A stretch of 63,204 nucleotides of DNA, filler included, from Reclinomonas americana ATCC 50394 (GCA_048213135.1; 5 parts of 2 records of this genome joined end to end with filler, not necessarily neighbours in it), one strand, 5' to 3'. Counted from the whole stretch's first letter, positions 2,036-62,200 are shown. Notes: generated by a model from the letters alone, not told the origin. Made by a program: numbers and translations.

Positions 2036-2777
2036 TCAGGCAGCCGGCGGCGCCTTGATGCCAAAGTTGTCGGGCATGCCACCATGCTCCACCATCTCGA
2101 CCAGGTTCTGGCCTGTAAAAAATCACGGAAAAATATCACATAGTCAGTCATCAACCGTCTTGTTGGATGAGAAAAAAGAGACACAAACCGATGAAGCACG
2201 GCATGCAGCACCACGAGAGCAGGCAGTCCATGGTGTTGTCCGACTGTGTGTGTTTCGCAAGCAAGTCACGTCAGCACATACACAAACTGACCAACTCATC
2301 AACAAACGCAACGTCGTAGCCGTTCTTCTTGCGGTAGCCCTGGCGCAGCTGGTAGGGGTTGGCGCCTGTTACATAGTAAAAAAAAAAAGGAAGTGTAAGT
2401 ATGATGATGACGATGACAATGAATAGATTGCGCGCGAAAAATCATGTGAAAAAAACGCAACAGCAGATGTAATCGTGCCACGTCACCTCGCGACCGTCAA
2501 GCCACGTGCTGCGAAGAGAGAGAGAGCCAGTGCGAGTGAGTTCGAAAGCGTGCGAACAAAGATGTCGCGAATGTCTCGCTCCCCCACACCACACTCACCG
2601 GGCCTGAGCGTTGGGGATGCAGTAGCAGCACCATGCGCACAGGCACAGACGCGGCTTGCCAAAGCAGGAGAACTGTTGCGGAAAAAAACACACACAATAC
2701 GTCACTCACTTTGTGTCATGATGCATTCCACACACACAGCAAAACGCAACGATCGAGGCCTCAAACGCCTTGCCCAT
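2036..2777 (-). CDS. PLAC8-family (Cys-rich) protein, 6 small exons, ~110 aa
   Basis: Manual splicing gives MGKAFEASI|FSCFGKPRLCLCAWCCYCIPNAQAR|TWLDGREVTWHDYIC|CANPYQLRQGYRKKNGYD|SDNTMDCLLSWCCMPCFI|GQNLVEMVEHGGMPDNFGIKAPPAA*. All phases are compatible, and the FSCF..C...CCxC, R...R.K.G and DC...CC.PC...Q pattern is the PLAC8 signature. Confidence 0.85.
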
Positions 2778-3257
2778 TGTAGATGATCAAGAGTCTGCGT
2801 GCGCGCGGAGAGAGAGTGTGAGCGAGACGGTTGACGTTTGATAGGTCAGTTGAGAGAAAGCAAGGCGTCAGTTGAGCAGGAGTTGGGATAAGCAACAGGT
2901 GCACACACACACAAAAAGGCGCGCATAGTGGGGCGCGGAGGAAGAGAAAGAGCGGAAAAAGGGGGGCGAGGGGGAAGGAAAAGGGACCGAAACATGGCCG
3001 AAATGTGCCCAGGCGACTCGCCACACAAAAACGTGACGCAACACACAAAAAAACACAAAACAAGAAAACGGTGTCATGGCAACGCAGAGAAGGCAAGGCG
3101 GCAGAAGAAAAGAAGAAGAATGAGAGAGAGAAAAAAAGTTGCATCGTCATCGCATGATGCAGAGATGCGATGCGCGCGCAAAAACACAAACCTTTCAAAT
3201 GATGAGTGACAAAAGCCGCGACGCGAGCCACATTGTGATTGTCACAACCCCAATGCT

Positions 3258-6200
3258 ATGCGCGATGTGAGCAGCCTCCTCGCCTCGCCTGTCTACGGCC
3301 TCGTGCAACAGCTGAACAATGCCTGTGACGATGGCGAGTACATTCGCCTGCTCGTGCACGAGATGCCGGCGGAGGTGGCGGCGCGAGTGGCGGCTGCTCC
3401 GTTTGTGCGCGCAAAGGCCACGCAGTGTGTGCGGCGTGTCGTGGCGGCGTGGCGTGCGGCGGAGATGAACAGGTCGATGTCGACGACGGCGGTGGAGGAC
3501 AACGGCAAGTCGCAGCAGTGGTTGTTGCAGACGTTGCGTGGCGGAGACAACTCGCAAACTGATAAGTGATTGACGCCCGATGCACACAGTGCGCATCCGT
3601 TCCCGCACCTGGCTGCGCTGATGGCCACCACCACTGATGCCAGCAGCAGCGGTAGCAGTAACGACGATAGGGAGCAGCGAGTGACGGCACTGGTGGAGGA
3701 GTGTGCTGCAGAGGTGGGCGAGGATGTTCTGCTGCTCTCGGCTCATGTGCCGTCGCTGTTGGCGGTCACGCAGGCGTGGTTGGCGCTACCGGAGGAGGCT
3801 GCTGCTGTGGCGGTTGATGCAGCGCACGTGGCGCAGGAGCTGTCTGCGATCGGGCGTCATTTGCGACGAGCGGCTGTGGTGTGTATCGCGATTGCATTGT
3901 TGGTGTGCCTCTTCGGCGATGTGACAGTGACGATGCAGGTGCCGCCGGTGTTGTTCCCGCGGCCTCCGTCGCTGCGATTGCCTCCGTGTCCTCCGCTCCC
4001 ACTAGCCGCGAGTGTGGGGAGCACGTTTGGTGTGGCGATGAGAGTGATGCAGCGGTCGCGAGCGCAGCTGGGCGATCGGGAGGAGGCACTGCGTCGTGCC
4101 TGGCGTCACTGCCAGCAGCTGGAGAATGCCACCGATCCCGCCAGTGTCTTTGGTGGGTCGAGGACGCCGCGGTGAGTGAAGAGAAAGAAGAGGGACAGGA
4201 GATTAGGGATTCTTGTCGCTCCTTCCCTCAAAGTGTGTGCTTACCAAACCACAGCCTCGATCCCACCACACTCGGGGCTTCCACAGCGCAAGTCGGTCGC
4301 CAACTGGCGTGGGAGCTCACGGAACAGCGACGCCGTGCTGTTGCCTGGCCGGGTGCGTCATTACCGTCACTCCACTCGTTTCTTCCTTCCCCTCACTGTG
4401 CGCTGCAGTGTGGCGACAGTTGTTGATCGATTGCATGATGACACCGCGTGCGCTCCTGTTAGCGCGCTCATCACTCGCTCGATGGGTGGCAAGGCTATTG
4501 GTTTCCTTGCAGCTCCCGCGTGCGTGCCTTGCTGTCGTGTCCAGTGCGCGCATACGACCGAATCGAGCGCGATGCTTGGTGTGGCTGGTGCTTGCGTGGC
4601 TCTACTATTCTTCTCTCCGTCAGTCCCCGCCACCTGCCGCACCCGCCGCGAATGCAGACACAACTCCGCCCGTGGACACCACGGTGGAGGCCGCCGTACG
4701 AGATTTGCTCGAATCTGCGGAAGAGACCAGGAGGAGTCAGCCGAGTGGTGAGTGTGTATGTGCGCACGGTCAGGCTTCAACACGTTTCCTTCGTAAGTGA
4801 CCTTGTGTTGCAGCACACTTGGAGGCTCTGTGCGACTACATAGACCGTGAACTCGTCAGCGCGGCGTCTGGCAGCATGCACTCGCAGCCGACGCACCATG
4901 CAGCCTCCGAGTTGCTTGTGCATCTAGTGGGCGATGTCACACGCGAGCGTGAGGATGATGAAAGTGCGTCTCGTGGTTCTCTGGGTGATGCATGTTTGCC
5001 ATCTCTCACCATATCCCGAGCCCATTGCAGACGTGGTCACCGTCGGCAACTTGCGGGAATTCTCTGACGGCGCGCTGCTGCTGGCGACCCTCTGCAGCTG
5101 CTTGCGACCCTTGGTCGACATGCAAGTACCGGAGGTTGTGCTTTCGGCTATGCACGCGGTGCTGTTGAGTGTGGTGGCGGTGGGTGTCGACGACGGTTCT
5201 CTGCTGTGTCGCATTCGTGAAGTGCGCCTGCGACTTGTGGATGCACTACATGTGCTCGCCTCATGGCTGCGTGAGAGCCACGGCAGCATGAACGGTTTGT
5301 GTTCCTCACCTCCGCCATGTACGGCAAGCACTGTTGTGTTCACTGCGATCTCTCTCTTTGTAGACGATGGCATAAATCAGTTGTTGGAGTGGACGGCAAT
5401 GCGCGATTGCTGCGGTGTGCTGCCGTTTGGTGACCCGAGTGACGGGTCGGCGTTGTGGTACGTGCAGAGATCGACAAACAAGATGATGATTGCGAGATGC
5501 GTGCTTACTGGCGCGCTCAGGTACCCGTCGCTGTATGATCCCACAATCGGTCGATTTCGCGCCTTTCTGCCGCTCACTCCGGTCGTGCATTCGCGCCACC
5601 TCGGTATGTGTGTAGTACGCGCGGATGGGTCGGTGGTGCGCCTTTCTCATGCAATCTACTTGGTGACAAAAAGAGAGCGAAGCGGTGGACGACGTGTTGC
5701 TGGCAACATGCGATCGCGCCGTCCGCGACATTCTCCCGTGTGCCACCAAAATGGGACACGAGTTGCTGCGCGGCAACGGTGTGCTGCTGCAACCAGATAC
5801 GTCGCCCATCAATGTGGCCTTTGTGAGGTGCGATTCCACCAAAATGCGCGTTTTGGTGCCCACACTCCTTGACATTACGCACCCGCAGAACGGATCGCGC
5901 TGAGACTCACATGAGTGGAGGTGCGGGCGGGCGCGATCCGCACTTGACCGCCAAACACGTCATGCAGTCACTTTTTCGTGTGTTGGTGGCGCCTGTCGTG
6001 GACAAGTTTCGAGACGTGCTGGCAGTCGACGACACCGACTTGGTACGCATGCATGTTTGAGTGGCACGCGCGTGCCACACGCTCATTTGGCATCACCTTT
6101 CGTGCCCACAGCACTTTGCTCGACAAATGGCGCACGACGCGAAGCGTGTGTACTTGGGTCGTGTGTTGCATGCCGACGAGGATCGGCGAACTGCGCTGCT

Positions 6201-8714: not shown

Positions 8715-8782
8715 AATAGAGACTTCACTGATCCATACACAACAAAGAGCATCTGCCAGTGATCGCCAACAAATCTCGTGTG
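8715..8782. repeat. 68-bp dispersed element, copy 1
   Basis: 64/68 identical to 54436-54503. Confidence 0.85.
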
Positions 8783-8810: not shown

Positions 8811-16434
<7,624 letters not shown>

Positions 16435-18537: not shown

Positions 18538-18671
18538 TTTTCACACTCATGTCTAAAATCACAGCACACATCACCAGCTTGCATGGCTTGTGCGCAAGGC
18601 GCGCATGGCCGAGTGCCAACAGCCAAGNNNNNNNNNNNNNNNNNNNNNNNNNNNNNNNNNNNNNNNNNNNN

Positions 18672-18683
18672 TTAATTAATTAA
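18672..18683. other. artificial six-frame-stop contig linker
   Basis: TTAATTAATTAA between two 44-N runs (100 nt in total). Confidence 0.95.
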
Positions 18684-18730
18684 NNNNNNNNNNNNNNNNN
18701 NNNNNNNNNNNNNNNNNNNNNNNNNNNCTC

Positions 18731-18954: not shown

Positions 18955-21900
18955 ATCCTCGCAACTAACGATTGTTACTGCTGGATTGGTCGCCACACTT
19001 TCAGGTCTGGTGTCGGTCGTGGTGAACAAAATACAACAAAAGTGGCATACTGACTGGCCCAACCTCTTGCAGTAACCATTTCGGTCAATGACGGCAACGG
19101 CGGCTCTCTCTCCAAGACTTTTACGATCCTCCGTTGCGTTCATCCCCCCTCGTGATTTTGGGATCCCCTTCTGATATTGCTTTACGCCTTCCTGCAGCCC
19201 TCACAACTCCTGCAAAGCCCACGCTGTCGCCCTCCACCTACACGCCTCCACTGGCTCTCAACGGCGTCATTGGCGCGTTATCGGCCACAGATCCGAACCC
19301 ATTGCAAACGCTGACGTTCACGATCATTGGCGGCGTCGATCAGGCATCGTTTGCCGTCTCTGGAAGCAACCTTGTGTCGGCAATTGCAGGCCTCACTGGC
19401 AACGGACTGCAAGTCACTGTGCGTGTCGCCAACACACTCGGAGCGAGCAATACTAATACGTTCTCCATCAGCGAGAGTTGCGCCATTGTTTCCCTCTCAC
19501 GGAAGTCTGCCCCGTCGTACTCAACAGGTTTTCTGCACAGCAAACGTGACGCCGTCTGCGCCGGCCCTCTCTACGTCCACCTACATACCGCCGCTCGCGT
19601 TGAACAGCGTGATCGGGACGCTATCTTCGACAGACCCCAACACGGGCCAGACTCTGACATACACCATCATCGGCGGCACGAATCAGGCCTTGTTCAACAT
19701 CAGTGGCACGAGTCTGCGCTCCAATGTGGCTGCATTGACAGGCAATTTGTTGCAAGTAACTGTGCAAGTGAGTGACGGCGCCGGAGGAACGAAAAGCACC
19801 ACGTTTTCCATTAGCGAAGGTGCATTGTGCCGCGAGTCATTTGCCTCATTTTTTACTTCTCACCTACTTTCTTTTGCTTGTGGCAGCCAATGTGTTGCCC
19901 ACGGCGCCGATACTCTCCTCGTTGACATACACACCACCGCTGGCCCTCAATGGAGTGATCGGCACCCTGTCGTCGACGGATCCGAACACTGGCCAGTCGT
20001 TGACGTACACCATTACGGGCGGCGCGAATCAGGCCTCCTTCAACATCAGTGGCACAAGCTTGCGCTCCAATGTGGCAGGACTGAGTGGTAATGGACTTCA
20101 AGTAACCGTGCAAGTGAGTGATGGAGCAGGAGGCACGGCAAGCACAACGTTTAGCATAAGCGAAGGTGAGAGAGAGTCTTGTTCTTGTGGGTTCCATGAG
20201 TTTCTCACTCTTGCTTCTTCCTCCTGCCAGCCAATGTGCTGCCCACCGCACCGACTCTCTCCGCGTCCACCTACATACCACCGCTCGCGATGAATGGCGT
20301 GATTGGCGCGTTGTCATCCACAGATCCAAACACTGGTCAGACGCTTGCCTTCACTATTACCGGCGGCACGAGCCAGGCTTCGTTCAATATCAGCGGCACG
20401 AGCTTGCGCTCAAATGTGGCTGGCCTGACTGGTAATGGACTGCAAGTAATCGTGCAAGTGAGCGATGGAGCTGGTGGAACAGCCAGCACGACATTTACAC
20501 TCAACGAAGGTGAGTTGTTGTTGAAGTCAGCGAAAATTGCTTTGCGTCGAGTTTCTCATTGTATGTATTGTGGACAGCTAATGTGCTGCCGACTGCACCA
20601 ACACTCTCTTCGTTGACGTACCCACCGCCGCTAGCACTGAACGGGGTGATCGGCACGCTGGCGTCAACAGATGTCAACACGGGGCAGACGCTCACCTTCA
20701 CTATTACTGGCGGCACGAATCAAGCTTCGTTCAACATCAGCGGCACGAATTTGCGTTCGAGCGTGGCAGGACTGACGGGTAATGCATTGCAAGTGACTGT
20801 GCAAGTGAGCGACGGCGCTGGCGGAACGAACAGTACCACATATTCAATAAGCGAAGGTGTGTCGCTGTTCGCGTGACTGTGTCTTCGTGTTATTTGGTCT
20901 CATTGATTGCTCTCTGACAGGCAATGTGCTGCCGACGGCACCGACTCTGTCTTCCTCGACGTACATTCCACCTTTGGCTATGAATGGCATCATCGGCGTA
21001 TTGTCGTCGACCGATGCCAATACGGGCCAGACGCTGACCTACACAATCACCGGTGGCACAAGTCAGGCCTCGTTCAATATCAGCGGTACGAGTTTGCGCT
21101 CCAGTGTGTCAGGACTGACCGGAAATCTGCTGCAAGTGACGGTGCAAGTGAGCGATGGCGCTGGAGGAACGGCGAGCACGACGTTCTTGATCAGCGAAGG
21201 TGACCTAATCAATGTTCTCCCTATCTCTCTTCACGCTCTCGTTTCCATTGGCTGACGCTGCTCGCGTTGCTTCACAGCCAATGTGCTGCCCACTGCGCCG
21301 ACGCTCTCTTCATCCACCTACGTGCCGCCGCTGGCGCTGAATGGCGTGATCGGCACGCTCTCTTCCACAGATCCAAACACTGGCCAGACTCTGACATACA
21401 CCATCATCGGCGGCACGAATCAGGCCTTGTTCAACATCATTGGCACGAATCTTTTCTCGAATGTTGCTGGACTGATGGGCAATGGGCTGCAAGTGACAGT
21501 GCAAGTAAGCGATGGCGCAGGAGGAACGAATAGTACCACATTTACAATCAGCGAAGGTGCGTCGCGGTTCGAAGTCAAGTTTCCCATTCTTGCATCTCAC
21601 CCATTTTCCGTGTTGGCAGCCAATGTGCTACCCACCGCACCGACACTCTCCTCGTTGACGTATGCGCCACCGCTGGCCCTCAATGGAGTGATCGGCACGC
21701 TGGCGTCGACAGATGCAAACACCGGGCAGACGCTGACGTACACCATCACCGGCGGCACGAATCAGGCCTCCTTCAACATCAGCGGCACCAGCTTGCGTTC
21801 GAATGTGGCTGGCCTCACCGGAAACAATCTACAAGTGACTGTGCAAGTGAGTGATGGAGCAGGTGGCACGGCAAACACGACATTCACCGTTAGCGAAGGT

Positions 21901-24900
21901 GAGTGGGAGTCTTGTACTCTTGAGCTGTGTGTTTGATGAGTTACTTACTCACTCCTGCTTCTTCATCCCGCCAGCCAATGTGGTACCCACTGCGCCGACT
22001 CTCTCCACGTCCACCTACATACCGCCGCTGGCACTGAACGGCGTGATTGGCACGCTCTCTTCGACAGACCCCAACACGGGCCAGACTCTGACATACACCA
22101 TCATCGGCGGCACGAGTCAGACCTCGTTCACCATCAGTGGCACGAGCCTTCTCTCGAATGTTGCTGGCCTGACGAGCAATGGGTTGCAGGTGACTTTACA
22201 AGTGAGCGACGGCGCCGGAGGAACAGCCAGCACGACGTTTACTCTCAACGAAGGTGAGAAGTCCTTGTGTAGTTGCCATAGACCTTGTCGTTCTGTTAAC
22301 ATTCTGCTCTCTTGTCTCACCAGCAAACGTGATACCAACTGCGCCTACGCTCTCCACGTCTGCCTACATTCCACCGCTGGCCTTGAACGGAGTGATTGCC
22401 ACTTTGTCATCGGTGGATCCGAATACTGGCCAGATGCTCACATTCACCATTACTGGCGGCACAAACCAGGCCTCATTCAACATTAGTGGCACGAGCTTGC
22501 GCTCCAATGTTGCGGGCTTGACTGGCAACGGGCTGCAAGTGACCGTACAAGTGAACGATGGAGCTGGCGGAACGAACAGCAGTACATTCTCAATCAGCGA
22601 AGGTTTGAAATGCGTCAGCCTGTGCATGACTTCCATGTTTCTCACTCTTCTCTTTGCACTCGCAGCCAACGTAACGCCTACCGCTCCAACTCTGTCATCC
22701 ATGACGTACACGCCGCCGCTTGTGATGAATGGCGTGATTGGCACGCTGTCTTCGACGGATCCCAACACTGGACAAACCCTGCTGTTCACCATTGTCGGCG
22801 GCACCGATGCGTCGTCATTCAACATCAGCGGCTCGAGCTTGCGGTCGAATGTGGCTGCGCTGACCGGAAACGGACTGCAAATCACCGTGCAAGTGAGCGA
22901 CGGTGCCGGCGGCGTGGCGAGCAGCATATTCACCATCAGCGAAGGTGCGTATGTGTGTAACTGTCGTCCTTCTTTGGCGCAAACTCACACTTCTTGCAGC
23001 CAACGTCGTGCCCACTGCGCCGATCCTTTCCTCGAACATCTACACGCCACCATTGGCTCTGAATGGTGTCATTGGCACGCTGTCGTCTGTGGACCCGAAC
23101 ACTGGACAGACGCTGACTTTTGCAATCACGGGCGGCACGAATCAGGCCTCATTCAACATCAGTGGCGCCAGTCTGCGGTCGAATGTGGCTGGTCTCACTG
23201 GTAGCGGACTGCAAGTGACTGTGCGCGTGAGCGACGGAGCCGGTGGAGTGGCCAATGCCACGTTCACAATCAGCGAATGTGAGAGACTTCTATCGTCAAC
23301 AGCATCTTGTGGCTGGATGACTCATGCATTCTATCGTGCAGCAAACGTCAACCCTAGTGCGCCAACTCTGTCCTCCACCTTGTACGTGCCGCCGCTTGCC
23401 CTCAACGGCACGATTGGCACTCTCGTGTCGACCGACGCCAACACGGGTCAGACCCTGACGTTCACCATCACTGGCGGTACACACTCGACGCGCTTCAACA
23501 TCAGCGGCACGACGCTGCGCTCCAACGTGGCCGGCCTCACCGGCAACAGCTTGCAGGTGGTGGTGCTGGTGAGCGATGGAGCAGGTGGATCGGCCAGCAG
23601 CACGTTTTCGATTTCTGAGAGTTGCGTGCATCACGTAAACGCTGTCGCGTACCCACCGTGTGACTGACAAGAGTGAGCAGGCAACGTGATACCGTCGGTG
23701 CCGACGTTGTCGACCAGCTTGTACACTCCACCGCTCGCTGTGAACGGCATCATTGGAGCGCTGTCATCGAGCGATCCCAACACTGGTCAGACGCTTGTGT
23801 TCTCGATTGCGGGTGGCGCGGATCAGGCGTCCTTTGTCATCATCGGCTCGAATCTGTGCTCGAATGTGGCGGGGTTGACCGGCAATGGTCTGCAGGTGTC
23901 GGTGAGCGTCAGCGACGGCGCAGGTGGAGTCGCCAGTTCCATGTTCAGCATCAGTGAGGGTGAGTCTCTTGACGGACTGTTGCTCGAGCACGTCGTTGCG
24001 CTCATCTCTGGTGTGTGTTTGTGTGCAGTGAACGTGCTGCCGACGGCTCCTGTTCTGTCGAACAACCTGTTTGTGCCGCCGCTGCCACTGAATGGCGTGA
24101 TTGGCGCGCTATCGTCTGTCGACCCAAACACGGGACAGATGCTGGTGTTCAGCATCACCGGCGGCACCAATGCAGCTCTGTTCAACATCAGCGGCTCGTC
24201 GCTACGGAGCAATGTGGTGGGCCTGACGGGCTACAATCTGCAAGTGACGGTGCAAGTGAGTGATGGGGCGGGCGGCACGGCGAGTGCAATGTTCTCCATC
24301 AGCGAAGGTACGTTATTCAGAATGCGGTGATTGGATTGTGCACGACTCTCAACATGATTTCCATCTGCACAGCAAATGTGGCTCCGAGCAGCATCACACT
24401 GTCGTCGTTGCTATACGATCCAACGCAACTGCCTCTCGCTCTGGTCGGCACACTCAGCTGTGCCGACGTGAACACGGGGCAGACGTGCTCCTTCACTGTG
24501 CTCCCCACTGGCGACGGTCCTCTGTTTCGAGTGACGAACGGCAATCAGCTGTTTATCAGCAGCGCTACCGAGACGACCACACCACTCAGCGTCAGCATCC
24601 AGGCAACAGACAGTGGTACGCCACCGCTTTCGTTCACGCAGCTGTTTACCATCAATGCTGGTGAGTTCGCAGATGACATCATGTTTCTTCTATTTCCTAA
24701 AATACTCACTTGCTGTTTCTGCTCACCGCAGCCAATCTCCCGCCTACCGGTCTCACGCTCTCTCCGACTGACTATCGTCCGCCGCTGGCCCTGAACTCTG
24801 TGGTTGGCACGCTGTCGGCCACGGATGCCAACTGTTGCCAGACGCTGACGTACCGGCTGGTGGGCGGCGCTGATCAGGCCAAGTTTGCGATTGTGGGCAA

Positions 24901-36522: not shown

Positions 36523-39500
36523 GTACCGTCTGCGGACTCGTACACACCGGCGAGCATCACGAGTGAGACGACGGGTCAGAGTGTGACGGTGACCGGCCAT
36601 TGTCTCACAGCCAGTGACGACGTGAAGCTTGTGTCTGGATCTGGTTGCTCTGGATCGCCGTCGTACAGCATGACGAGTGGAGCGCGCGGAGGATCAGCGG
36701 GTGCATGGACATTGACGGTGACGACGAGTGATGTGAATCTGACGCCGGCGGGACAGTATTCTGTGTGGTTCGTCTTTCGCTATCCGCATTGGTGTTGCTG
36801 AGAAGAAAGTCGGCTGGTCACTGACTTAATATGTGTATGCGATGACAACCATTCAGCTATCGGTTCAACGGCACGGGGGCATATGTGCAAGTGACATCGA
36901 CGCTNNNNNNNNNNNNNNNNNNNNNNNNNNNNNNNNNNNNNNNNNNNNTTAATTAATTAANNNNNNNNNNNNNNNNNNNNNNNNNNNNNNNNNNNNNNNN
37001 NNNNTTTGAATGTCAGTTGAGTGATTATTTGGAGAGAGAATGAATGTGTGTGTGTGTATGAAAGAGAGAGAGGGAAAGAGAGTGAGAGTGAGTGAGTGCA
37101 GATGTACATGTCCAAGGATCTAACATTATTACGTCTCCACTCCTCCCCTTCATTGTTTCTTTTATTCTGTTCCCTCCTCTGTTGTGCAGACAAACTGGCG
37201 GAGTCATTCTCGCCGAGTTCTATTGTGGCGGAGACGAGTGGACAGTCAGTCGATCACGGCGACTGGACGTCTGACGACGGCCGATGCGATTCGATTGGTG
37301 CTCGGTGCTTCGTGTGGCGGAGCGACGACGTACGATCTGGCAGTGGGATCGGCGGGTAGTGTTGCGGGAGCGCGGACTGTGGTTGGCACAGTGTCGGATG
37401 TGAATCTGACGCCGGCTGGATCGTATGTGGTGTGGTGAGTGTGTGTTTGTGGAGATGAGATGTGATGTGGTGGAGAGGGATTGGGTTTGCGTGCTTGCAG
37501 TTTTTGTTCTTGCAAAGTGATTCTCGTTTATGAGATTTTCTGCTGTTTCGACTGACGTGTTGTGCACGGAACAGCTACAAGTACAACAACACTGGATCGT
37601 TTGTGGCGCTGACGGGAGCACTGATCGTCTGTTGCGTTACGGTTTTCTTGATTCAAGGTCTAGTTTTAGTTCCATTCCGCTAACTGGTTGTGCGCTCCAT
37701 TACAGCCAAATCGGCAACGTCATACTCGCCGTCGAAGATCACTGCAGAGACGACTGGCGAAGCCGTGACTGTAACCGGACGCGCATTGTCAAACACAGAT
37801 GCTGTGCGACTGGTGTTGGGTACATCGTGTGGTGGTTCGACTTCGTTCACGTTGACAACTGGCACTGTCGATGGAAGCGTCGGAGCGCGCACGGTTCGCT
37901 TCACCACGTCAAGCACTGCGATCGCTGCGGGATTTTACACTGTGTGGTATGTTTTGGACGTGATTGTGTCTTGGTGCTGTGGACGTCGGTTGTGCTTACT
38001 CGGTGCTGCTGTACTCCTCTCATAGTTATCAGTACGACGCTACCGGCAGTCTTGTCAGTGTTGGCAGTGCGTTGGAAGTTGGTGCGTTCACACATATATG
38101 CTTCCTCCGTTTTCACTTTGTTGCTTGTCCCCTTTGTTGTCTCCTTCTATCCTGCTTCTCACTTTCTGTTCATTACCACAGGTGCAAGCGGCGACTCCTT
38201 CACTCCTTCATCGATACGCTCCGAGACCAGCGGCGAGGTGATTTCCGTTACTTGGTCACGGCCTTGCCAACTCCGATTCTGTGCAACTTGCTGCCGGTAT
38301 CGGATGCGCGGGTACAACGTACAGCCTGTCTCCGGGCTCATGGAGCGGATCGGCGGGTGCGCGAGTTTTGACGGTTTCCACTCCTGGTCTCACCATTCCG
38401 GCGGGTCATTGCACTATTTGGTTAGTGGATGCGCGTGTCTCGTTTAATATGCTCTGTATATATTCCTCTCTTCATCCCCCTCTCTCAACAATTTCTCCTC
38501 TCCCAGCATTCAGTTCAGCTACACCACCGGCTATGTGGCTGTCTCTGGCGGCACGATTTCTGCTGGTACGTGCACATCACGGTCTCCATGGTATTGATTG
38601 TGCTGCCTCACATTTCTTCGTGGGTTCCATTTTCCTGTGCTGCTGATAAACAGTCGAGACGGCCGATGCTTTCTCACCGGCCACGATATTCTCCGGAACT
38701 GCCAACCAAGTAGTCACCATCACAGGGCACGGCTTGCTTGCGGCCGATGCGGTCAAGCTGGTGTCTGGGACGACTTGCAGCGGCAGTCCGCAGTTCCCTT
38801 TGACTCCAAGTGCTGCAACAGCTGGCGTGGCAGGAGCGCGGCTGAAGACGGCATTCACACCAGATTCCAGTCTCACGGATGGCACCTACTCTGTGTGGTT
38901 CGTTTGGGGAAGTGCTGGAGAAGCAGATTGGGGTTGATGTCTCTCTACGCTCAATTCTTCACGATCTTTGTCATCTCAGACGCCCTTTGTTATCTTCTCT
39001 TGTTCACCTGGGGTGTTTTGCAGAGAAGCAGAGTGGTGCAGATCAGTGTGTCATCTCGCTGTGTCGCGTCTGTTCGTGCTCTCGCATCCCCCGTCTGTGC
39101 TGCTCATTTACTTGTCATCGTACTTGCCCTGCTCATCGTTGATATCCCGTCACAGCATCCAACTGACGTACCCGACGGGGGGCGCGTACTCTAAAGTCGG
39201 CACGACGGAAATATCCGTCGGTATGGTGTTGTCGCGCATCGTGCATCATGAACGTTGCCACGTCGTTGCTCATGTACTTGTCGTCCAGTGACTCCTCTGG
39301 TAGTTACCGGGTACAGTCCGGCAAGCATCGTCGCGGAGACTGCTGGTGTGCAGATCACGATCACCGGTGCCGGTTCGCAGCAGGCCGATACCGCCGCGCT
39401 CTTCTTGGGCACAAGTGTTTTCGTGTCTTGCGACACTGCCACATCGTACTCGCTCACGTCGACGTCAGTGGCTGGTGGGTTGCAAAAGATTGTGACGCTG

Positions 39501-42500
39501 GACACGAGTTTCCTTCCACGTGGCTACTATGCTGTCTGGTCAGTCATCCATCTCAATCCGTGCATTTGCTTTATGTGTCTCCACTGCTTATTGCTCACCA
39601 TTCCTGCCCGACAGCTACCACTTTGTGGGCACACTCGGTTACCCGTACGTCATGGTCCCGAATTCGGCTCTCGTCGTCGGTATGCAAACAGCTTCCTGTC
39701 CGTATTTGGAAAACACTGCGGCTTCCGTTCGCTCACCGTGCTTGCGCAATCAGTGCCGAGTGCCGATGCTTTCACTCCTTCCACCATCACCGGTCAGCTG
39801 GCTGGCGCGCTGCTGACTGTTACCGGTCACGGTCTGCTGGCATCGGATAATGTGCAGCTGATGCCATCTGGAACGTGTTCGGGGGCGACGGCCTATCGTC
39901 TCGCAGCGCAGTCGTTCGGCGGCGTGGCGTCGGCTCGCGAGGTTGTTGTGGCGACGACTGCGGAGAGCTCTGTGCCTGTTGGATCGTTCTATGTGTGGTG
40001 AGTGGGGAGGGGAAGGGAAGGGGGGAGAGGAGAAGGGAGGAGACGGGAAGGGAATGGGTGAAGGGAAGAGAGGAGATAAGAAGGAGACGGAAGGGGAGGG
40101 GAAGGTAGGGGAAGGGAAGAGAGGAGAAGGGAAATGTGTGAGGGAAGTGAGAAGAGGAGAAGGAGGAGAAGGGAAGAGAGGAAAAGAGGAGAATGTGTGA
40201 GAGGGGGGATGAGAGGAGACGGGAGGGAAGGGAAGGGAGGAGACGGGGGGAGATGGGAGGAGACGGGGGAGAAGGGAAGAAAGGAGAAGAGAAGGAGGAT
40301 AAGGGAAGAGAGGAAAAGAGGAGAATGTGTGAGTGGGGGTAAGAGAGGAAGATGAGAGATAAAGGAATGCAAGAGAAAGGAGAGGGGAAGTAGAGAGGAG
40401 AGAAGAGTGGAGGTGAGAGGTGAGATGGAGTGAATAGAAACTGGGACAAATGAGAATGTGCGGTTGCTTCCTTGTGCGACAGGTTGTCCAGTGTGACTGT
40501 GTGTGTATACGTGAGTTAGTGAGCGAGGGCGAGAGAGTGAGACCAGCTCAGCTGGGAGGGATGAGAAGGAGGTGAAGGGAGGAGGGATGGGGAAGCAAAG
40601 GTGAAAAGAATGAGTGAGTTGTGAGATGCGTTATGTGGCCGGAGAGACACTTAGAATGAAAGCATGTTTGTTGAGCGAGATGCACGAGTTTACGTTGGAA
40701 TAGAGCCCCGTATTGCAGAGGATAGTGGATGGAGTTTGTAGACTGGAGACATTTGCATCGATTGAATGAGCATTCTTGGTCGTCTTCGGTGGTTTCTTTG
40801 CGTCAAATGCTCGTTTTCCTTTCTCTTACTCTCTGCGAGAAGCGAGCTTGAGTCAGTGTGAATGTATTCCTTTTACTCACACTGTGTATTACAGTATTCA
40901 ATTTGGTGGCGTCGGATCGTTCACTGCCGTCGCCGGTGGCCAACTTACCGTCTGTGAGTACGAGTGGAGCGTGCGAAGAGTGCAGAGATCAAAATGAGTT
41001 GCTCATGTGTTTGTTGTGTTTCGGCAGTACCATTGCCAACATTTTCAATCCCAACCGTCGCGTCGTCGTACACGACAATCGGCAACACAACCACTATTGG
41101 TACGGTCACCCAGCATGTCATGCTCACGTCCATCATCCTTCTCATTCTCCTGCATCTGCCTGTAGTCACTGGCGCAACAACATCGAGCACAATCGGTCAT
41201 CGTGTCGGTTTGTCCGGACAAGTGGTGGTGTTGACGGTGCCAGTGGCCTCGTTCCTTTGCCACGCCGTCATTTACACTGTTCAAGAACGCCGACTGCCGC
41301 GGAAATGTGGCCACCATTATTAGCGGCTTCAACATCGCGTCTGATGGCACGACCTATGCCATCACATTCACATTCGACACGACTGGAGAGACAACACCAA
41401 CCAAGCAGCAGTTGTGCCTGTCATCCACTGACCTGGCAGGCTACTTTAGCATGGCGTCTATATCCATTTGTTGCGTTCCTGCTGGAGATATTCTGATGTC
41501 AAGTTTACTTCCTTTTCTTCTAACGAGGCGACCATGTAGATCGTGTCAAGAGCACTTCCGCGCCTTCCATATCCCAAGGCATCAAGTCGCAAACTGTTGT
41601 CTTGTCGGGCGGCGACTTCCCATTGCTGGCTACAAGTGCCGCCAATGGCAGTAATCCAGTCACACCTGGCGGCACGCCACTGGCATTCATCCTCTCACTC
41701 GCCACCGACTGTTCGTCGATGGACTTGCGGGCGGCTGCCTTTGTGGTCACTGCATGCGGTGTCGCCGACGCGTATTACGGCCACGGTTTCCACCATTTCT
41801 GCGATCTCTCTCGCCTCGTGCACGCTAGATCCGCCTGGCACGTATCAAATTTGTGGTCGGTGTGTTACGGAGGGGAAGAGGGAAGGGAGGGGAGGGATGG
41901 GAGGGGGAGGGGGGGGGGAGAAGGGGAAAGGGAGGAACGACGGTGAAGGAAGAGAGACAGGGAAGAGAGGGCATTACCGTTGAGAGAGATATGGGCGAGG
42001 GGAAACGGTGATAGAGAAAGGGCGTGAGAGTGGATGGTGTGGGGCAGAAAGAACAAAGCAGTGGGTGCCGGGAGGAGAGATGAAGGAAAGCGGGAGAGGC
42101 AGGTGAACCATGAAGTAGACCGTCTGTATGTGCGAGAGAAATGGTAGGATGTGAATGAGATGGCGGCAAGCAATAGGAAAAAATGAGTGAGAGGCTGCAG
42201 GTGAGCCACGTATGTGCGAGAGATACTCGAGGATGTGAATGAGAGGGGCAAGAGGGCTGAGGAACAGTAGAAAATGAGCGTGAGAGACTGCATGCGCGAA
42301 TGTGTTGGACTTTTTGTCATTTTCTTTCATGGTCAACGAGAAAAGTGGAAGGATGAGAGAGAATGCGACGGATCTATCGACGTTTCACCACCATCGACTA
42401 TTCCACTGACAAAATATCTGCGCACAACTTCCAAGACGGCTCGTATGTGCCTCTCGGTGTGACATTGACCATCACGACCGTCACCGACCCCGATGTCGGC

Positions 42501-42529: not shown

Positions 42530-42573
42530 NNNNNNNNNNNNNNNNNNNNNNNNNNNNNNNNNNNNNNNNNNNN

Positions 42574-42585
42574 TTAATTAATTAA
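42574..42585. other. artificial six-frame-stop contig linker
   Basis: TTAATTAATTAA flanked by 44-N runs. Confidence 0.95.
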
Positions 42586-42683
42586 NNNNNNNNNNNNNNN
42601 NNNNNNNNNNNNNNNNNNNNNNNNNNNNNCGGTGGTGGTGGAGGCGCAGAAGACATGTTATTGTGAACAAGACAGGACAAGGT

Positions 42684-45442: not shown

Positions 45443-49615
<4,173 letters not shown>

Positions 49616-53673: not shown

Positions 53674-53883
53674 GTGAGCGAAACGTGGAAGGATTGGATT
53701 GATTAAGAGGATGTTGAGGGCTCTCTTCTCTTGTGTCCATGCGTGTTTGTCACTTTCCCTTTGTCTATCCGTCTTCCTCTTTGTCTCCTGCTCGGTCTTC
53801 CCCCGTTCTCTTCCTATTATCTCTCCGTTCCCCTCCCCCNNNNNNNNNNNNNNNNNNNNNNNNNNNNNNNNNNNNNNNNNNNN

Positions 53884-53895
53884 TTAATTAATTAA
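53884..53895. other. artificial six-frame-stop contig linker
   Basis: TTAATTAATTAA flanked by 44-N runs. Confidence 0.95.
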
Positions 53896-54435
53896 NNNNN
53901 NNNNNNNNNNNNNNNNNNNNNNNNNNNNNNNNNNNNNNNACGGTTGTGCGAGAAGTGGGAGAAGGGGGAGAGGAGGAGAGAGGAGGGGGAAGGGAGTCGG
54001 GTGTGCAGTCTTGCAGTGGAGAGAGACGCTGGGTCGGCAGCTGCAACTGGATGATGGAGCTTGTCTCCTCAGGATTGTGGAGAGACGTGTCTGCAGGGAG
54101 TCACCATTCACGTTGCCGCCGCGCAACGTAGCTGTGCTGACGAAGGTGCCGGGTTGAGCTCTTCTTTCTCGAGAGGTGAGAAAATTGGTGGGTGGGAGGA
54201 GATGTGGATTGCCAATGGCACATCGTGGCGAATGCAAGTGAGCGGTCGACGAATGCAGTATCCTGCGTTCGACGCCACACAGGAAGAGGTACATCATTTG
54301 GAGCTTTGTTTTAGAACGGACTGATGGACAGACAAGCTCTCGAAGTCGGGGAGTGAAGCACAGACGGGAAGCTTCGCAGCTCAGCTATTATTCCGCACAT
54401 GCAGAGCTCTGCTGTTATGAGGGAAGACGGATAAT

Positions 54436-55105: not shown

Positions 55106-55400
55106 ATGCGCACTCACCTCCTCCTCCTCCTTCTCCTTCTCCTCACTCTCACGCCTCTCGCCCTCGCCTGCACGCCCTCAGGCAAAGGCTGTGCCATGTC
55201 TCCTTGGGCGCGACGCGGAGTGCCTCGCGATGCAGCATTCTCTGTGGATGATACCAACAATGAGGTCAACTTGACACACTTGGGAGCGGCGCATGGATGG
55301 CACATTGCGCGGAATGAGAGTCAAGTGTTTGGGGTGGGAAGCATCACGTCGTTGCGTGGAAAAGGGGAGGAAAAGGGGAGGAAAAGGGGATGAGAGATGA

Positions 55401-55452
<52 letters not shown>

Positions 55453-55704
55453 AGAAAGAGAGAGAGTGTGTGAATGAGAGCTAGAGTGAGAGAGGGAGCA
55501 TGAGAGAGGGACTGCATGCATGAGGCAGAGAACATGACTGTGAGAAATGACTGAGAGAGACAGACTGCAANNNNNNNNNNNNNNNNNNNNNNNNNNNNNN
55601 NNNNNNNNNNNNNNNNNNNNNNNNNNNNNNNNNNNNNNNNNNNNNNNNNNNNNNNNNNNNNNNNNNNNNNNNNNNNNNNNNNNNNNNNNNNNNNNNNTCT
55701 CGTC

Positions 55705-55777
<73 letters not shown>

Positions 55778-58513
55778 GGCAGAAAATGAAACTTGCATGA
55801 CGACTGTTCGGAAAAACCATTGCTTCGCTTGATTGTGCTCTTGAAGTCTGTCTCCTCACTGCCTACGTCTCTCACTCTCAAGTCTTTCCCTTCCTCTCGT
55901 GCATCTCCCTCGCTCACTGTCTCCCAGCTGAGAGACGTGACAGACAGATCTCTCTCTCTCTCTCTTTCCTCTTTACACACTGCAGTCTCTCACTTTGCTC
56001 TGTCTTCTCTCTCACTGCCTCCCTGACAGGAGAGAGAGAGAGAGAGAGAGCGAGAGCGAGAGCTGCTGATCTGCAGAGAGACATGCAGACTGAGAGAAAG
56101 AAACTTGCACGACGACTGTTCGGAAAACCATTGCATGTTTGCAGTCTAATGTTTCCCTTGATTCTGCTCCTCCGTCTCTTGTGTGGACTGTTGGAGAAGA
56201 TAGGAGTGGGCTCTCTCCCTACCATCCTTCGCCTTCGCGGTGCACTCGACACTGCTTGCAAGCCATACCTTGCTGTAGCACGATCCCTTTCCCTCTCCTT
56301 CCCTCACCCCCTTCCCCCTCTCGACAGCTACGCCGGCTACTTCCAAACCGACCCCGTCACCGACAACAACCTCTTCATGTGGTACTTCCCCGCGCAAAAC
56401 GGCGATGCCCACGCCCCACTCCTCATCTGGCTGCAAGGCGGGCCCGGCGGCGCCTCGCTCTTTGCCATCTTCACCGAGAGCGGTCCGTTCCGCTTGACGC
56501 CCGAGCTGCAGGTGCAGTCGAATCCCTCGTCGTGGAACACCAAGTACTCGATGATGTTTATCGACAATCCAGTGGGTGCTGGATTCAGTTAGTTGCGTGA
56601 CAAGAGAGGCGAGAGGAGAAAGCCGACTGCTAACGACTGCTGATGCGCAGCACATCCACCGAGGCCGGCTACGCTGTCAGCGAGGACGACGTCGCCGACA
56701 ACCTCTACTCGCTGTTGACACAGTTCTACAAGGTACGTTACAAACGAAGTCTATTGCTTTGCTGTGCTACACGCCGGCTTTCTGCTTCTTTATTTGCAAT
56801 GATCCTTCATGAAATTTTTGTCTCCTGCTCTCTCTCTCTCTCTTTTCTCTCTCTCCCCTCCTCCGTAGCCCTCCTATCCCAATTTCTCTGCTCTCCCCTC
56901 CTCTCTTCCAGTCTTCGATCGTTGCCCTTCCTCGACCCTGCATTCTCTTGTTGCTCTGTTCCATTCCCTCGTTCATATCCCCTGTCTGCGCTCTGCTCCG
57001 TTCTCGTGCCTTATTTGCTCCGTTCCTTCTTCCCTTGCACTTCACCTCGCCATTCGATGTTCTATTTCTGCTTCACACTTCTCATCCCGATCATTCCACT
57101 TATCTCCCTTTCCTTTCCCTCTCCTCTCGTTGCAGGTGTTCCCCGAGACCAGCACCGTGGACTTGTACATCACTGGCGAGAGCTACGCCGGTCACTACGT
57201 CCCCGCCTTTGCGTACCGCGTGCATCAGATGGTGTGTGCGTTTGCTTCCTTTCCCCTCCTTTTGTTCTCCCGCAGCCTCACCTTGTAGACGTCTTTGCAG
57301 AATCTGAGCGGCGCCAAGGTTCCGCTGAAGGGCCTCGCTATTGGCGACGGCTGGGTGGACCCCGTCAATCAGCTGGCCGGGTACCCGCAGCAGGTGAGTG
57401 AGACTGACCGATTCACTGCTCATGCATCGCGACCGACTCTCTTCTTTTCAGATGTACAACCTGGGTCTCGCCGACGAGAACGAACTCCAGCGACTCAACC
57501 AGTACGTGGCCTCCACAGTCAGCTTCATCAACCAGGGTCGCATGCTGGACGCCTTTACCGTGTGGGACGAGATGATCAATGGAGATGTAAGTGTCACGTG
57601 TACTCGCACACACAGGAGAGTGCTCTCACTCTCTTTCTCTCCCCCCCATCGCAGATTTACCCGTACCCCAACTACTTCCACAATGTGAGTTCTCGTACTT
57701 CTCGTTTGTCACTCTCCTTGCTCGCTGCCTCTCACCTTCTGCCGATGACCAGATCACCGGCAGCTACAACTACGACAACTTCTTGCGCGACGTGTCGCCA
57801 GCGGCCTACAGCTACTGGTATACGGTGCGTTCATCTCACAGCGATGTGCAAGCATATTCGAACATACACACTGAAAGCATTCCTCCGTGCAGTTCATGTC
57901 GCAGGCATCCGTGCGCAATGCCGTGCACGTTGGCTCTCGTCAGCTGCAGGACGGTCACCAGTGCGAGATTCACCTGCTGAAGGATTTCATGGTTTGTGAT
58001 TCGCTGATTATCGCAGACGCCTTCCTACTCACCCATCGTGTGCGCAGTTCTCCCTCGCCCCGCAGCTCATCACTCTCCTCAACGCCAACTACAAGGTCCT
58101 CATCTACAACGGCCAGGTGTGTTGTCCACCTTCACCCTTCTCATCTCCCCCCTTGTTCCTCACCGTCCTCTCCATCCGCAGCTCGACATCATCATCGGCG
58201 CACCGCTCACCGAGCTCTTCATCCCGAAGCTCCAGTGGAAGGGCCAGTCGGCGTATCAGACGGCCGACAAGATCGTGTGGCGCTGCCCCACGTGTGTGGC
58301 CAACAATCCGACCGCGGGCTTTGTGCGCGTGGCGCAGAATCTGACGCAGATTGTCGTGCGCGGTGCCGGCCACATTGCGCCCTTTGATCAGGTGCGTTTG
58401 GTGAAGGAGAAGAGTTGAGGGATTGCGCATCTCATCTTTCTCTCTCGTTGCAGCCGGAGCGCATGCTCGACTTGATGATCCGCTGGGTGGAGAACAAGTC
58501 GTGGAGCACATGA
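55106..58513 (+). CDS. serine carboxypeptidase, family S10 (CPVL-like), with signal peptide
   Basis: Signal peptide MRTHLLLLLLLLLTLTPLALA; SYAGYF, WLQGGPGGAS, FIDNPVGAGFSY, catalytic GESYAGHYVP, GLAIGDGWVDP, YNGQLDII (Asp), GAGHIAPFDQ (His); ends RWVENKSWST*. Confidence 0.95.
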
Positions 58514-59262
58514 AAACAAACACACGCNNNNNNNNNNNNNNNNNNNNNNNNNNNNNNNNNNNNNNNNNNNNNNNNNNNNNNNNNNNNNNNNNNNNNNNNN
58601 NNNNNNNNNNNNNNNNNNNNNNNNNNNNNNNNNNNNNNNNNNNNNNNNNNNNNNNNNNNNNNNNNNNNNNNNNNNNNNNNNNNNNNNNNNNNNNNNNNNN
58701 NNNNNNNNNNNNNNNNNNNNNNNNNNNNNNNNNNNNNNNNNNNNNNNNNNNNNNNNNNNNNNNNNNNNNNNNNNNNNNNNNNNNNNNNNNNNNNNNNNNN
58801 NNNNNNNNNNNNNNNNNNNNNNNNNNNNNNNNNNNNNNNNNNNNNNNNNNNNNNNNNNNNNNNNNNNNNNNNNNNNNNNNNNNNNNNNNNNNNNNNNNNN
58901 NNNNNNNNNNNNNNNNNNNNNNNNNNNNNNNNNNNNNNNNNNNNNNNNNNNNNNNNNNNNNNNNNNNNNNNNNNNNNNNNNNNNNNNNNNNNNNNNNNNN
59001 NNNNNNNNNNNNNNNNNNNNNNNNNNNNNNNNNNNNNNNNNNNNNNNNNNNNNNNNNNNNNNNNNNNNNNNNNNNNNNNNNNNNNNNNNNNNNNNNNNNN
59101 NNNNNNNNNNNNNNNNNNNNNNNNNNNNNNNNNNNNNNNNNNNNNNNNNNNNNNNNNNNNNNNNNNNNNNNNNNNNNNNNNNNNNNNNNNNNNNNNNNNN
59201 NNNNNNNNNNNNNNNNNNNNNNNNNNNNNNNNNNNNNNNNNNNNNNNNNNNNNNNNNNNNNN

Positions 59263-62200
59263 TTTCATGTGTCTTCGCTCCTCCTGGAATGGGAGAAGGA
59301 TGAGGGGAAGTGAGAGGAGTCCGAAGCAACTACTTTGTTGAGAAAGAGAGAAAAGTGACAAGTACCACTCTATTCTGCGAGGAAGACGAAGAGAGACAAA
59401 CATTCATTTTCTGAAAGAAGAAATACGAAAGCCAGTCACTCACAGACACAGTCTCTCTCTCGCTGAACAGAAGACACGAGAGAAGCTCCATAAAAACTAT
59501 CACTATAAGAGAGGAACAGTGGGACCATTTCTATTCCCAAGACGAAGGAAGGAAGACAACTGGAAAGAAGGTAAATTGCTTTTAGCGACAGAGCGCATAG
59601 AGTGACCAATGAATCTTCTCTGCGAAAGAGTCTCTCTGCGTGAAAGATAAAATGCAAGACGCGGAAAGAGTCTTCTGCGAGAAACAACAACGAGAGAAGC
59701 GAGCTGACGCTCTCCTTGAGAGTATCTCTCTCTTTCAGAAAGAAGAACTCATCCAACAAACTCTCTTTCTCATCTCGTGAGAAAGAAGAATAGAAAAGGA
59801 GAAGGGAGGAATGATCTCTGTGAGGAAGAAGATAGACCAGCCTTCCATTTCCCTCCCTGGCAGTCAGTGTGCAGTTCACAAGAAACGGCAATCTCACCTC
59901 CAAACGCCGATAGTCGGGCTGGAAGAAGAACATGAGCACCAGCGCAATGGCCAGCGTGCCGACAATGAACCACAGTGGTGCCGGAACGTAGCTGACGCTC
60001 TGCGTGTTGAACCCGTCTTCAGCAACACCGCAGCACCGTCCTCTCTCACCCACCACCACTCACGTTTTGTATCACCGACATGACGATAATGTAAATGATG
60101 CCAAACACTTGGCCAGAGAGGAACAGGAGGCCCGACGGAATGCCCTCAGGAATCGGGAAGGACACTTCCACAGAGGCCTCGAGGCACACGGGCAGCAGTG
60201 AGAGCGCACACAGGCCCAGGGCCGCGAAGCCAATGTAGAGGTAGGTTTTGAAGTCTGCCGAAAGGAGAAGGAAAGGGAGCAGGAATCAGTCAACCGAAAG
60301 TGAGCTGGCAGACGCTGCAACCACTACTGTGCATGCCAGCGTGTGCTTGTCTATGCTCGTCTCTCCCACACTTTCTCTGCATCTGCCTCTCGAATTCATC
60401 GTCTGTCTGAAACAGACAAACTGTGTCTGCTACTGAAAATGAACACTTCACTCGAAGGGTCAGATTCTTCTCGCCCATTCTCTCTGTCGCTGTACATTTG
60501 CCACTGTCGGCACTCCACCCGCGTTGGTATCATAGCTATATCTCTCTTTTCCTCACTCGCGCCCGCTGAGAACCTGCCTCTCGAATTCACAATCTGTGTG
60601 TGCCTGCGTGCGTATCATTCTGTCACTCTGCGTGCCAGCTTCTGAAGTCTCTGTTTCTACATCTCCACTTCCACCGTATCTATGTCGCTGCCATGATGTC
60701 TTGTTGCGTGACTCAATAGCTCCCTTTCCCTTCTCGAATTCACAGTCTGTCCGTGCGTTCGTGCGTATCATCCGTCATTCGACGCGTCTGCTTCTGAAGC
60801 CTCTGATTCTGCATCTCCGCTTCCTTTCTCTCTGTTTCTCCCACAGAATCTGTGTCGCTGCCATGATGTCTTGTTGCGTGGCTACATCGCTTTTTTCACG
60901 ACTTTGCTCTCGGCCAAGCCCTTCTGCCTGACCTTCTTCCCTCACGTTCTCCCTCTCACACTTTGATTGTCTTCCTTCGTCTCTGCCTCTCTCTCTCTCT
61001 CTCCTACTGCCAACGCGCTCCTCTGCCTTTCCCCCATCTCACACACACACACTCTCTCTCTCTCTCTCTCTCTCTCTGTCTTCTCACTCTCTCTCTTTTC
61101 TCCCTTTTCCTTCATCACACCCTTTCCGAACAACGCACTTTCTCGAATGAGGAAGCAAATGCCCGTGGCCAGCAACGTGGTGATGGCGTAGATGAGAATG
61201 ATCGCCGACTTGTACTTGCGACTGCGGTCGACGAGGTAGCCGACGGCACCTGAGCCGACAATACCCGCAAAGATCATGATGGAGCCGAAGAGGCCGCAGT
61301 CGTCGGAGGAGTAGCCGAGGGGTTCCAAGATCTGCGCACGCGGGTGAGAAGAGATGGGAGGGCGACAAAAGAGAAAGGCACACGCACTTGCAGCAGCACA
61401 GTGAGGAGGCCATTGAAGCATCCCATGCCAATGCCGAATGCTACAAACACAATCATAAAGTTTCGGTTCCTGAAAATCGTCTTGTACGACTCCTTGGCCG
61501 ACATGCGCAGTGTCAGCTGGGAGACCGACGGCGCAATCGGTGGGCTGTTCTGGAACGACACCAGAGAGAGCACGCAGGAGGCGAGGCTGATGACTGTGGT
61601 GGTGGCAAAGGGGTGAGTGGGGAGAGGAGGAGGAGGAGGAGGAGGAGAGGGGAAAGGACGCAACTGGCGAAAATCATGTCAAACATCGCAAAGCCGCTGT
61701 TTTCCTTGATGATGACGGGGGCGAGCACGTAGCCGACGGCGATGCCGAGGACGTTGGCAAGGGAGCCGACGGTGGTGGCAATGGTGCGTTCGTGCTGCGC
61801 GGAGGGGGAAAGGGGGAAGGGGGAGAGAGAAGAGGAAGAGAAAACGAATAGGTCAGAGATGACCGAGAGAGAAAGTAGATGGGTTTGGAGACGGTGTGCG
61901 TGAGAGAAACAGAAGCAAGAGAGACGGAGGAAGAGAGGGAGTTGTTGAAAATGAAGGTGTGTTGTGGGAGAATGATGGAAGAGCAGAAAGATGAACTTCA
62001 GAAGAAAGGAGCGTTCATGAGAGGTGAGACACAAACGATGAGAAAAAAGAGGACGAGGTTTGAAAGAAGGAGAGCTAAAGAGTGCGAATAGAGAAGGAGA
62101 AAGTATGAGAGAGAACGAGAGCATGTGGGAGGGGTTAAAAGGTTGTGATTGAATAAAGGAGTGCGTGAGAGAGAGAGAGACGAATAATTTGGAGCGCGTG

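Follow-up and report, generated by a model that had tools for sequence, protein, structure and literature searches.

A 63,204-nt stretch of the Reclinomonas americana ATCC 50394 genome (GCA_048213135.1), which we refer to as the window, contains many introns that begin with the heptamer GTTGCGT. From comparative sequence evidence, these introns and those beginning with its rarer sister word GTTTCGT almost certainly represent a real, distinct and abundant second class of GT-AG splice donors. This window, which is intron-rich, has a G+C content of ~53% and includes 2829 N in 16 runs, is our whole sample. A preliminary description of it had listed 15 donors beginning GTTGCG, none of them preceded by G. 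We found the hexamer at all 15 coordinates on the strands given, extended to GTTGCGT at 14 sites and to GTTGCGC at 19477, and the base at -1 was C at seven sites, A at five, T at three and G at none.

The evidence for these donors comes from homology, from paralogy and from our own gene model. Six sites can be regarded as proven on such grounds, 55351, 56592 and 61664 through homology and 19133, 19477 and 23621 through exon periodicity, and the same evidence shows cleavage that would fall immediately before the first G of GTTGCGT. Two of the homology-defined sites lie in a serine carboxypeptidase (S10) gene on the plus strand at 55.2-58.5 kb, for which homologues, tblastn and reading of the intron borders gave 11 introns. 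The spliced 11-intron model encodes 469 aa without a stop, and its residues 13-469 align as one piece to intronless metagenome relatives. At 56592, the Pfam Peptidase_S10 profile is matched in frame over positions 7-100, with the match ending exactly at the donor, and the split codon TA+C yields the tyrosine of a conserved G-F-S-Y motif. The spliced product aligns ungapped across this junction to the homologue P0124. A second GT, 5 nt downstream, does not work because an in-frame TAG would remain. At 55351, the spliced peptide shows no gap at the junction against P0127, P0124 or P0125, and 65 of 124 homologue matches begin more than 8 residues upstream of the junction. The third site fixed by homology, 61664, is in a gene for a major facilitator superfamily (MFS) transporter, and its spliced peptide aligns to P0256 with 0 gaps in 113 residues across the junction. 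There is likewise no gap at the junction against P0281 and P0298, and the homologues cover the exons on both sides. Among 80 metagenome loci related to the S10 exon (<=66% identical), none had an intron at the 56592 position, and GTTGCGT occurred three times in 222,595 bases of these relatives; they are mostly intron-less transcripts and therefore uninformative on conservation of the donor class.

The remaining proven donors belong to a giant gene on the plus strand (19073-31700) made of tandem 93-residue cadherin-like domains, one domain per exon, in which Pfam found a weak Big_9 match. The exons are exactly 279 nt long and all introns are in phase 1, a periodicity by which five gene-model errors were corrected. 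The resulting spliced model has 28 introns and reads through 2529 aa without a stop, with a 93-residue period. Paralogous exons of this gene end ...GAA G/GTG..., and variants at the same position end ...GAG A/GTTGCG. Within the gene, G at -1 precedes 0 of 4 GTT[G/T]CG donors versus 23 of 24 of the rest (p = 2.4e-4). The donor at 19477 was also picked by a gene model in which the donor was defined by GT only. Three 63-nt introns of the same gene (21557-21619, 22603-22665 and 26226-26288, plus strand) are in frame and stop-free, and our own gene finder read through them.

To describe the class we curated 44 introns, of which the S10 gene supplied 11, a small Cys-rich gene five and the tandem-domain gene 28, so that paralogous exons of one gene account for 28 of the 44. 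GTTGCG starts eight of the 44, as well as 12 of 109 introns predicted by our gene model with a donor hexamer table learned from its own output, a share of ~11-18% of the introns in the window, or about one in six to nine. The base before the donor separates this class sharply from the others. G at -1 was found at 0/8 curated GTTGCG donors versus 32/36 others (89%; p = 2.8e-6) and at 0/12 versus 54/97 in the predicted set (p = 2.5e-4), so that use of the hexamer is not independent of the -1 base, as the preliminary description had implied. Its account of the common donors also held up: the other 36 curated donors follow the pattern G/GT[G/a/t][A/C/T]GT, 13 starting with GTGAG and nine with GTGCG.

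The two classes are further distinguished by where G falls within the donor. As had been anticipated, introns with G at +5 hardly ever have G at +6 as well: 31 curated introns have only the former, nine only the latter, three neither and one both (p = 2.9e-6). The GTTGCG class is fixed for T at +3, C at +5, G at +6 and T at +7 and has no preference at -1 to -3. All eight curated sites have C at +5 and G at +6, and G at +5 is found in 32 of the 36 others; G at +3 occurs in 0/8 versus 29/36. T at +3 alone does not define the class, since donors with T at +3 and G at +5 (G/GTTTGT and G/GTTTGA, at 57992 and 22603 on the plus strand and 2188 on the minus strand) keep the -1 G. The sister word GTTTCGT has three sense copies in the window (7427 +, 27423 + and 62324 -), and all three are predicted donors. 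Two of these copies have A at -1 and the one at 7427 has G, which would break the non-G rule if that donor is real.

The pattern might instead have arisen by chance or from mis-parsed gene models, GTTGCG being merely frequent and the true donors lying elsewhere. Two of the listed sites are indeed ambiguous, seven rest on models only, and the second GT five bases into GTTGCGT was sometimes picked by an unguided model. However, this explanation is refuted for the six sites fixed by homology or exon periodicity, as the in-frame TAG at 56592 illustrates for the downstream GT, and the abundance of the word speaks against it as well. While the hexamer GTTGCG has 55 copies on both strands of the window, the heptamer GTTGCGT has 25 versus 8.84 +/- 3.03 in dinucleotide-preserving shuffles, a 2.8-fold enrichment, and none of 100 shuffles reached 25. 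Base composition, which could have accounted for the frequency of GTTGCG, does not do so, and we consider chance or mis-parsing extremely improbable as an account of the class. When sense and antisense were assigned with a strand map from our own gene model, 18 copies of the heptamer fell on the sense strand and seven on the antisense strand, and GTTGCGT and GTGTGTT were the joint commonest sense-strand GTNNNNT words (18 copies each). G stands at -1 before 0/18 sense versus 3/7 antisense copies (Fisher p = 0.015). Additional copies of GTTGCGT (sense 45124, 781 and 10977; antisense-mapped 3042) have poor scores as coding-region donors (-5.9 to -11.4).

Our gene model combines three-periodic coding statistics, an acceptor matrix and explicit introns on both strands. 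With GT-only donors, GTTGCG was the second commonest hexamer among the predicted donors (7/98 strand-consistent introns). With the learned table, 11 of the 15 listed sites were recovered and four were missed, the model taking 33821 in place of 33914. When single sites were forced or forbidden under the GT-only model, seven of the 15 were on the best path and the other eight cost 0.4-5.6 log units, a test that lacks resolution because proven sites were among the eight off-path ones.

Beyond the donor itself, introns of the class look ordinary. All 14 that could be modelled run GT...AG with YTNAY branch-like motifs and CAG ends, and 13 are 57-96 nt long, the other being 977 nt. One fixed word at many introns could mean common descent, in which case the heptamer would have been inherited from a family of mobile introns (introners) and would involve no special recognition. 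By inspection, though, the 14 modelled introns have no common sequence beyond +8, which is not the look of a mobile-intron family; the shortest is 57 nt long and the longest 977 nt, and the strict non-G at -1 together with the exclusion of G at +5 points to selection on recognition. An introner origin thus appears highly improbable. A candidate link between GTTGCG donors and ACAG acceptors (7/12 versus 26/97 across all predicted introns, p = 0.04; among short introns, p = 0.17) was not convincing.

U12-type introns likewise have a 5' motif that is long and invariant and lack an exon-side consensus, and a minor (U12-type) spliceosome that has diverged might handle the class, as in organisms whose minor introns have become numerous and changed their signals. 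Physarum offers a precedent, a massive expansion of U12-type introns with transformed signals, as given in an excerpt of bioRxiv 10.1101/2020.10.12.336362, which also supplied the U12-type motif definitions used here. The sequences themselves argue against this explanation. The donor motif [G/A]TATCCTT has 0 exact copies in the window and 43 with one mismatch versus 35.8 +/- 5.7 expected. The branch core TCCTTRAC occurs once (5866), outside the introns of the class, versus 3.7 expected, and we saw no TTCCTT[G/A]AC branch motif in the 14 modelled introns. Branch-like motifs and 3' ends are the same as those of other introns, and handling by a minor spliceosome seems very unlikely.

We favor a mechanism wherein the major spliceosome reads these donors in a displaced register, to which, from the sequence patterns at hand, we would assign a probability of roughly 0.55. 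U1 first, and U6 later, would dock on the UGCGU core, as in the canonical G/GUGCGU, but one nucleotide deeper in the intron. The docking would amount to a +1-shifted register or, seen in another but equivalent way, to a bulge formed by one of the two U's, and the catalytic center would then use the only available GU. With G(+1) taking the place of G(-1), a G at -1 would no longer be selected. Shift and single-U bulge are indistinguishable from sequence alone; the shift fits better because the loss of the -1 G is complete, G(+1) occupying its place. From +3 to +8 the class reads T, G, C, G, T, G/T, which mirrors the canonical preferences at +2 to +7 (T, G, A/C/T, G, T, T/G), and GGTGCGT and GTTGCGT are one letter different. 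Sites read in a shifted register are expected to pair weakly in the canonical one and to have G at +6 rather than +5, as all eight curated sites do.

Such sites should also pair clearly better with U1 when shifted. We computed duplexes with the standard 11-nt U1 5' end (AUACUUACCUG; PMC4856993, from an excerpt) using ViennaRNA duplexfold, allowing any register, bulge or internal loop; the organism's own U1 may differ from this standard. The 36 other curated donors have a mean predicted duplex of -7.36 kcal/mol and an area under the curve (AUC) versus decoys of 0.95, the decoys being 922 GT sites from the same three genes with a mean of -2.09 kcal/mol. For model sites, the mammalian-type shifted words GUUAAGU and GUUGAGU reach about -6.7 in the shifted register, and GUUGCGU reaches -2.4 at best.

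Several observations weigh against a plain displacement of the register. The eight curated GTTGCG donors have a mean predicted U1 duplex of -0.35 kcal/mol and an AUC of 0.26, so that the better pairing expected on shifting is not seen with the standard 11-mer (-0.35 versus -2.09 kcal/mol for decoys), a result that holds only if the organism's U1 is standard. C at +5 is invariant in the class, in contrast to canonical +4, which is A in 16 donors, C in 12 and T in eight, and a one-base delay in reading the general consensus is therefore not enough to describe the class. A plain one-base shift predicts frequent GTTGAGT donors because GTGAGT is the commonest canonical donor, yet GTTGAGT has eight sense copies and at most one is a predicted donor; GTTAAGT has no sense copies in the window. 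On the exon side, the other donors prefer A-A-G, although paralogous exons exaggerate this preference, and the class does not show it shifted by one base. The gene model is imperfect, being exact for 7/10 homology-defined S10 introns and placing three proven GTTGCG sites 1.8-2.3 log units off its best GT-only path, and all the data come from a single 63-kb window. The preliminary description's reading in terms of shifted recognition thus survives in part. That GTTGCG marks a major donor class (8/44 and 12/109) stands, as does the consensus G/GTGCGT displaced by one base as a description of it. A shift on a standard U1 does not, given the duplex energies, the scant use of GTTGAGT and the invariant C at +5.

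Recognition of GTTGCGT consequently needs more than the textbook U1 shift. Since the prediction for a textbook U1 5' end is that it does not hold the site, docking in a displaced register must have help, either from a U1 5' end or variant that places a G against the invariant C or from an auxiliary factor that reads UUGCGU. In a what-if scan of the 16 base combinations possible at U1 positions 5-6, three versions put both donor classes well above decoys, with AUCs of 0.79-0.82 for GTTGCG donors (0.26 with the standard U1) and 0.81-0.89 for canonical donors; two of them carry G at position 5 and the third C. The scan is a calculation and no evidence that such a U1 exists; it ignores pseudouridines and proteins and alters the single U1. 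Rfam at gathering scores had 0 matches in the 63-kb window, hence no small nuclear RNA or tRNA genes.

A changed U1 can be envisaged in two ways. In one, a dedicated variant U1 small nuclear RNA, encoded by a second gene and with a 5' end complementary to GUUGCGU, would read the class in the ordinary register beside the standard U1, giving two readers for two classes. Invariance over seven positions is what full RNA complementarity predicts, C at +5 is fixed, nothing is preferred at -1 to -3, the standard U1 is predicted not to bind GTTGCG donors, and two of the three best GTTGCG AUCs in the what-if scan (0.79-0.82) came from versions with G at U1 position 5. Against this, few RNA segments are known to be as conserved as the U1 5' end, and the scan altered the single U1 rather than adding a second one. 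We regard a dedicated variant as unlikely. In a broader version, the major spliceosome would have co-evolved with its introns, a U1 or second U1 with a changed 5' end and G opposite the invariant C reading N/GUUGCGU as a full-strength donor of at least a tenth of introns; this we put forward tentatively, as a proposition that is rather unlikely to hold as stated.

The introns are collected in Table 1. For seven of the listed sites (2750, 2461, 2312, 3533, 37631, 41470 and 49440), the support consists solely of reading frame, coding potential and ordinary 3' signals. Three of them belong to the small Cys-rich gene, which runs on the minus strand from 2777 to 2036 and has, by frame logic, six exons and five introns of 69-96 nt, with three of the five donors being GTTGCGT. 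Presumably this gene is a relative of the PLAC8 family. Its model rests on frame logic because Pfam found no match on its short single exons. Upstream of its ATG, a minus-strand GTTGCGT at 3042 could begin a 5'-untranslated-region intron ending near 2794. The exon upstream of 49440 matches positions 154-218 of the Pkinase profile, the only, and partial, Pfam match on single exons around eight sites. A homologue search with this kinase exon found no homologue, and a search with a WD40 frame returned generic WD40 proteins only. The 3' end of the putative intron at 41470 is uncertain because the acceptor in the model is GAG, which is unusual and follows CTAAC by three bases.

Two sites are ambiguous. 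At 14681, a donor at 14695 (CCG/GTGGGA) paired with an acceptor at 14625 is equally in frame and favored by the gene model. At 33914, the gene model favors a GTTGCGT at 33821 (CAC/) in the same phase, and 33914 may be simply the gene's end because an in-frame TAA lies 12 nt downstream.

Table 1. GTTGCG-class and sister-variant introns of the window, with proven, modelled and ambiguous sites in order of position; a slash marks the exon-intron border.
Position	Strand	Gene or context	Donor and 3' end	Length (nt)	Phase	Basis
2244..2312	-	Small Cys-rich gene, intron 4	GAC/GTTGCGTT ... CACACAG	69	0	Frame logic only; missed by gene model
2366..2461	-	Small Cys-rich gene, intron 3	GCT/GTTGCGTT ... TAACAG	96	1	Frame logic; picked by GT-only gene model
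2673..2750	-	Small Cys-rich gene, intron 1	ATC/GTTGCGTT ... CAACAG	78	0	Frame logic only; missed by gene model
3533..3589	+		GAC/GTTGCGTG ... CACACAG	57	2	Gene model only
14614..14681	-	Candidate, ambiguous	AAC/GTTGCGTT ... TTTGTAG			Rival pair equally in frame
19133..19197	+	Tandem-domain gene	TCC/GTTGCGTT (GTTGCGT)	65	1	Domain-exon boundary
19477..19540	+	Tandem-domain gene	AGA/GTTGCGCC (GTTGCGC)	64	1	Flanking exons 19198-19476 and 19541-19819 each exactly 279 nt
23621..23680	+	Tandem-domain gene	AGA/GTTGCGTG (GTTGCGT)	60	1	Flanking exons 23342-23620 and 23681-23959 each exactly 279 nt
27423..27514	+	Tandem-domain gene	AGA/GTTTCGTG (sister variant GTTTCGT)	92	1	Domain-exon boundary
33914..34250	+	Candidate, ambiguous	CTC/GTTGCGTC			Rival GTTGCGT at 33821
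37631..37705	+	CTAAC branch-like motif	TCT/GTTGCGTT ... TTACAG	75	1	Gene model, also GT-only
41470..41527	+	Putative	TTT/GTTGCGTT			Gene model only
49440..49512	+	Near protein-kinase domain end	TCA/GTTGCGTG ... GCACAG	73	2	Gene model
55351..56327	+	S10 gene	GTC/GTTGCGTG ... CGACAG/C	977	2	Homology
56592..56650	+	S10 gene	TA/GTTGCGTG ... GCGCAG/C	59	2	Homology
61594..61664	-	MFS transporter gene	CCA/GTTGCGTC ... CCACAG/T	71	1	Homology

The window also carries traces of its assembly. Four identical joiners, each 44 N + TTAATTAATTAA + 44 N, occupy 18628-18727, 36905-37004, 42530-42629 and 53840-53939. They are six-frame stop linkers between contigs, and the window is therefore a stitched pseudomolecule. 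The other N runs (20-770 nt) are bordered by GA/CT or AAG microsatellites.

Full-text literature searches returned no description of a GTTGCGT donor class, although the organism's genome paper may still mention one. GT-AG introns with a non-canonical donor register are in themselves a known kind. Displaced U1 registers are rare exceptions in mammals; here, a single heptamer starts ~11-18% of introns in a 63-kb sample and departs from two of the firmest rules for recognizing a donor, the G at -1 and the G at +5. Gene finders trained on a single donor matrix will mis-call such junctions. If the class holds genome-wide, it would give a natural setting in which to study what determines the cleavage point when the paired core is displaced, and a way to test for co-evolution between a donor class and the U1 5' end. 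Should a co-evolved U1 prove true, it would mean that the RNA-RNA contact most conserved in splicing had been rewired in a lineage-specific way.

The closest known counterparts are the shifted and bulged donor sites of humans. According to an excerpt of PMC4856993, human U1 is established to use both the shifted register, credited there to Roca and Krainer 2009, and a bulge register at +2/+3; of 201,541 donors, 1.5% fall in any of the validated non-canonical registers, and 68 sites are predicted for the +2/+3 bulge class. Like the sites covered in that excerpt, GTTGCGT donors keep GT at +1/+2 followed by a further U, have G at +6 rather than +5 and can dispense with the -1 G, cleavage staying at the GU while the paired core lies one base further in. 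Unlike them, they are not rare (8/44 curated or 12/109 predicted introns). The human-type words have an A-rich core and pair well with standard U1, whereas GTTGCGT has an invariant C and is predicted not to pair; and the human sites form a loose family, whereas the class described here is a single fixed heptamer.

Like U12-type introns, the class is a second one within the same genes, its 5' motif is long and invariant, and it lacks an exon-side consensus; with the U12-type introns of Physarum it also shares its abundance (excerpt of bioRxiv 10.1101/2020.10.12.336362). It differs from them in its 5' motif, in being without a conserved branch motif and in having 3' regions like those of the other introns here. 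In intron structure it resembles the ordinary U2-type donors of the window (G/GTGAGT, G/GTGCGT and G/GTGTGT), with which it has in common GT-AG ends, short introns, YTNAY branch-like motifs and CAG acceptors. The TGCGT core of the class also occurs in G/GTGCGT, and what sets GTTGCGT apart from these ordinary donors is T at +3, C at +5, G at +6 and no G at -1.

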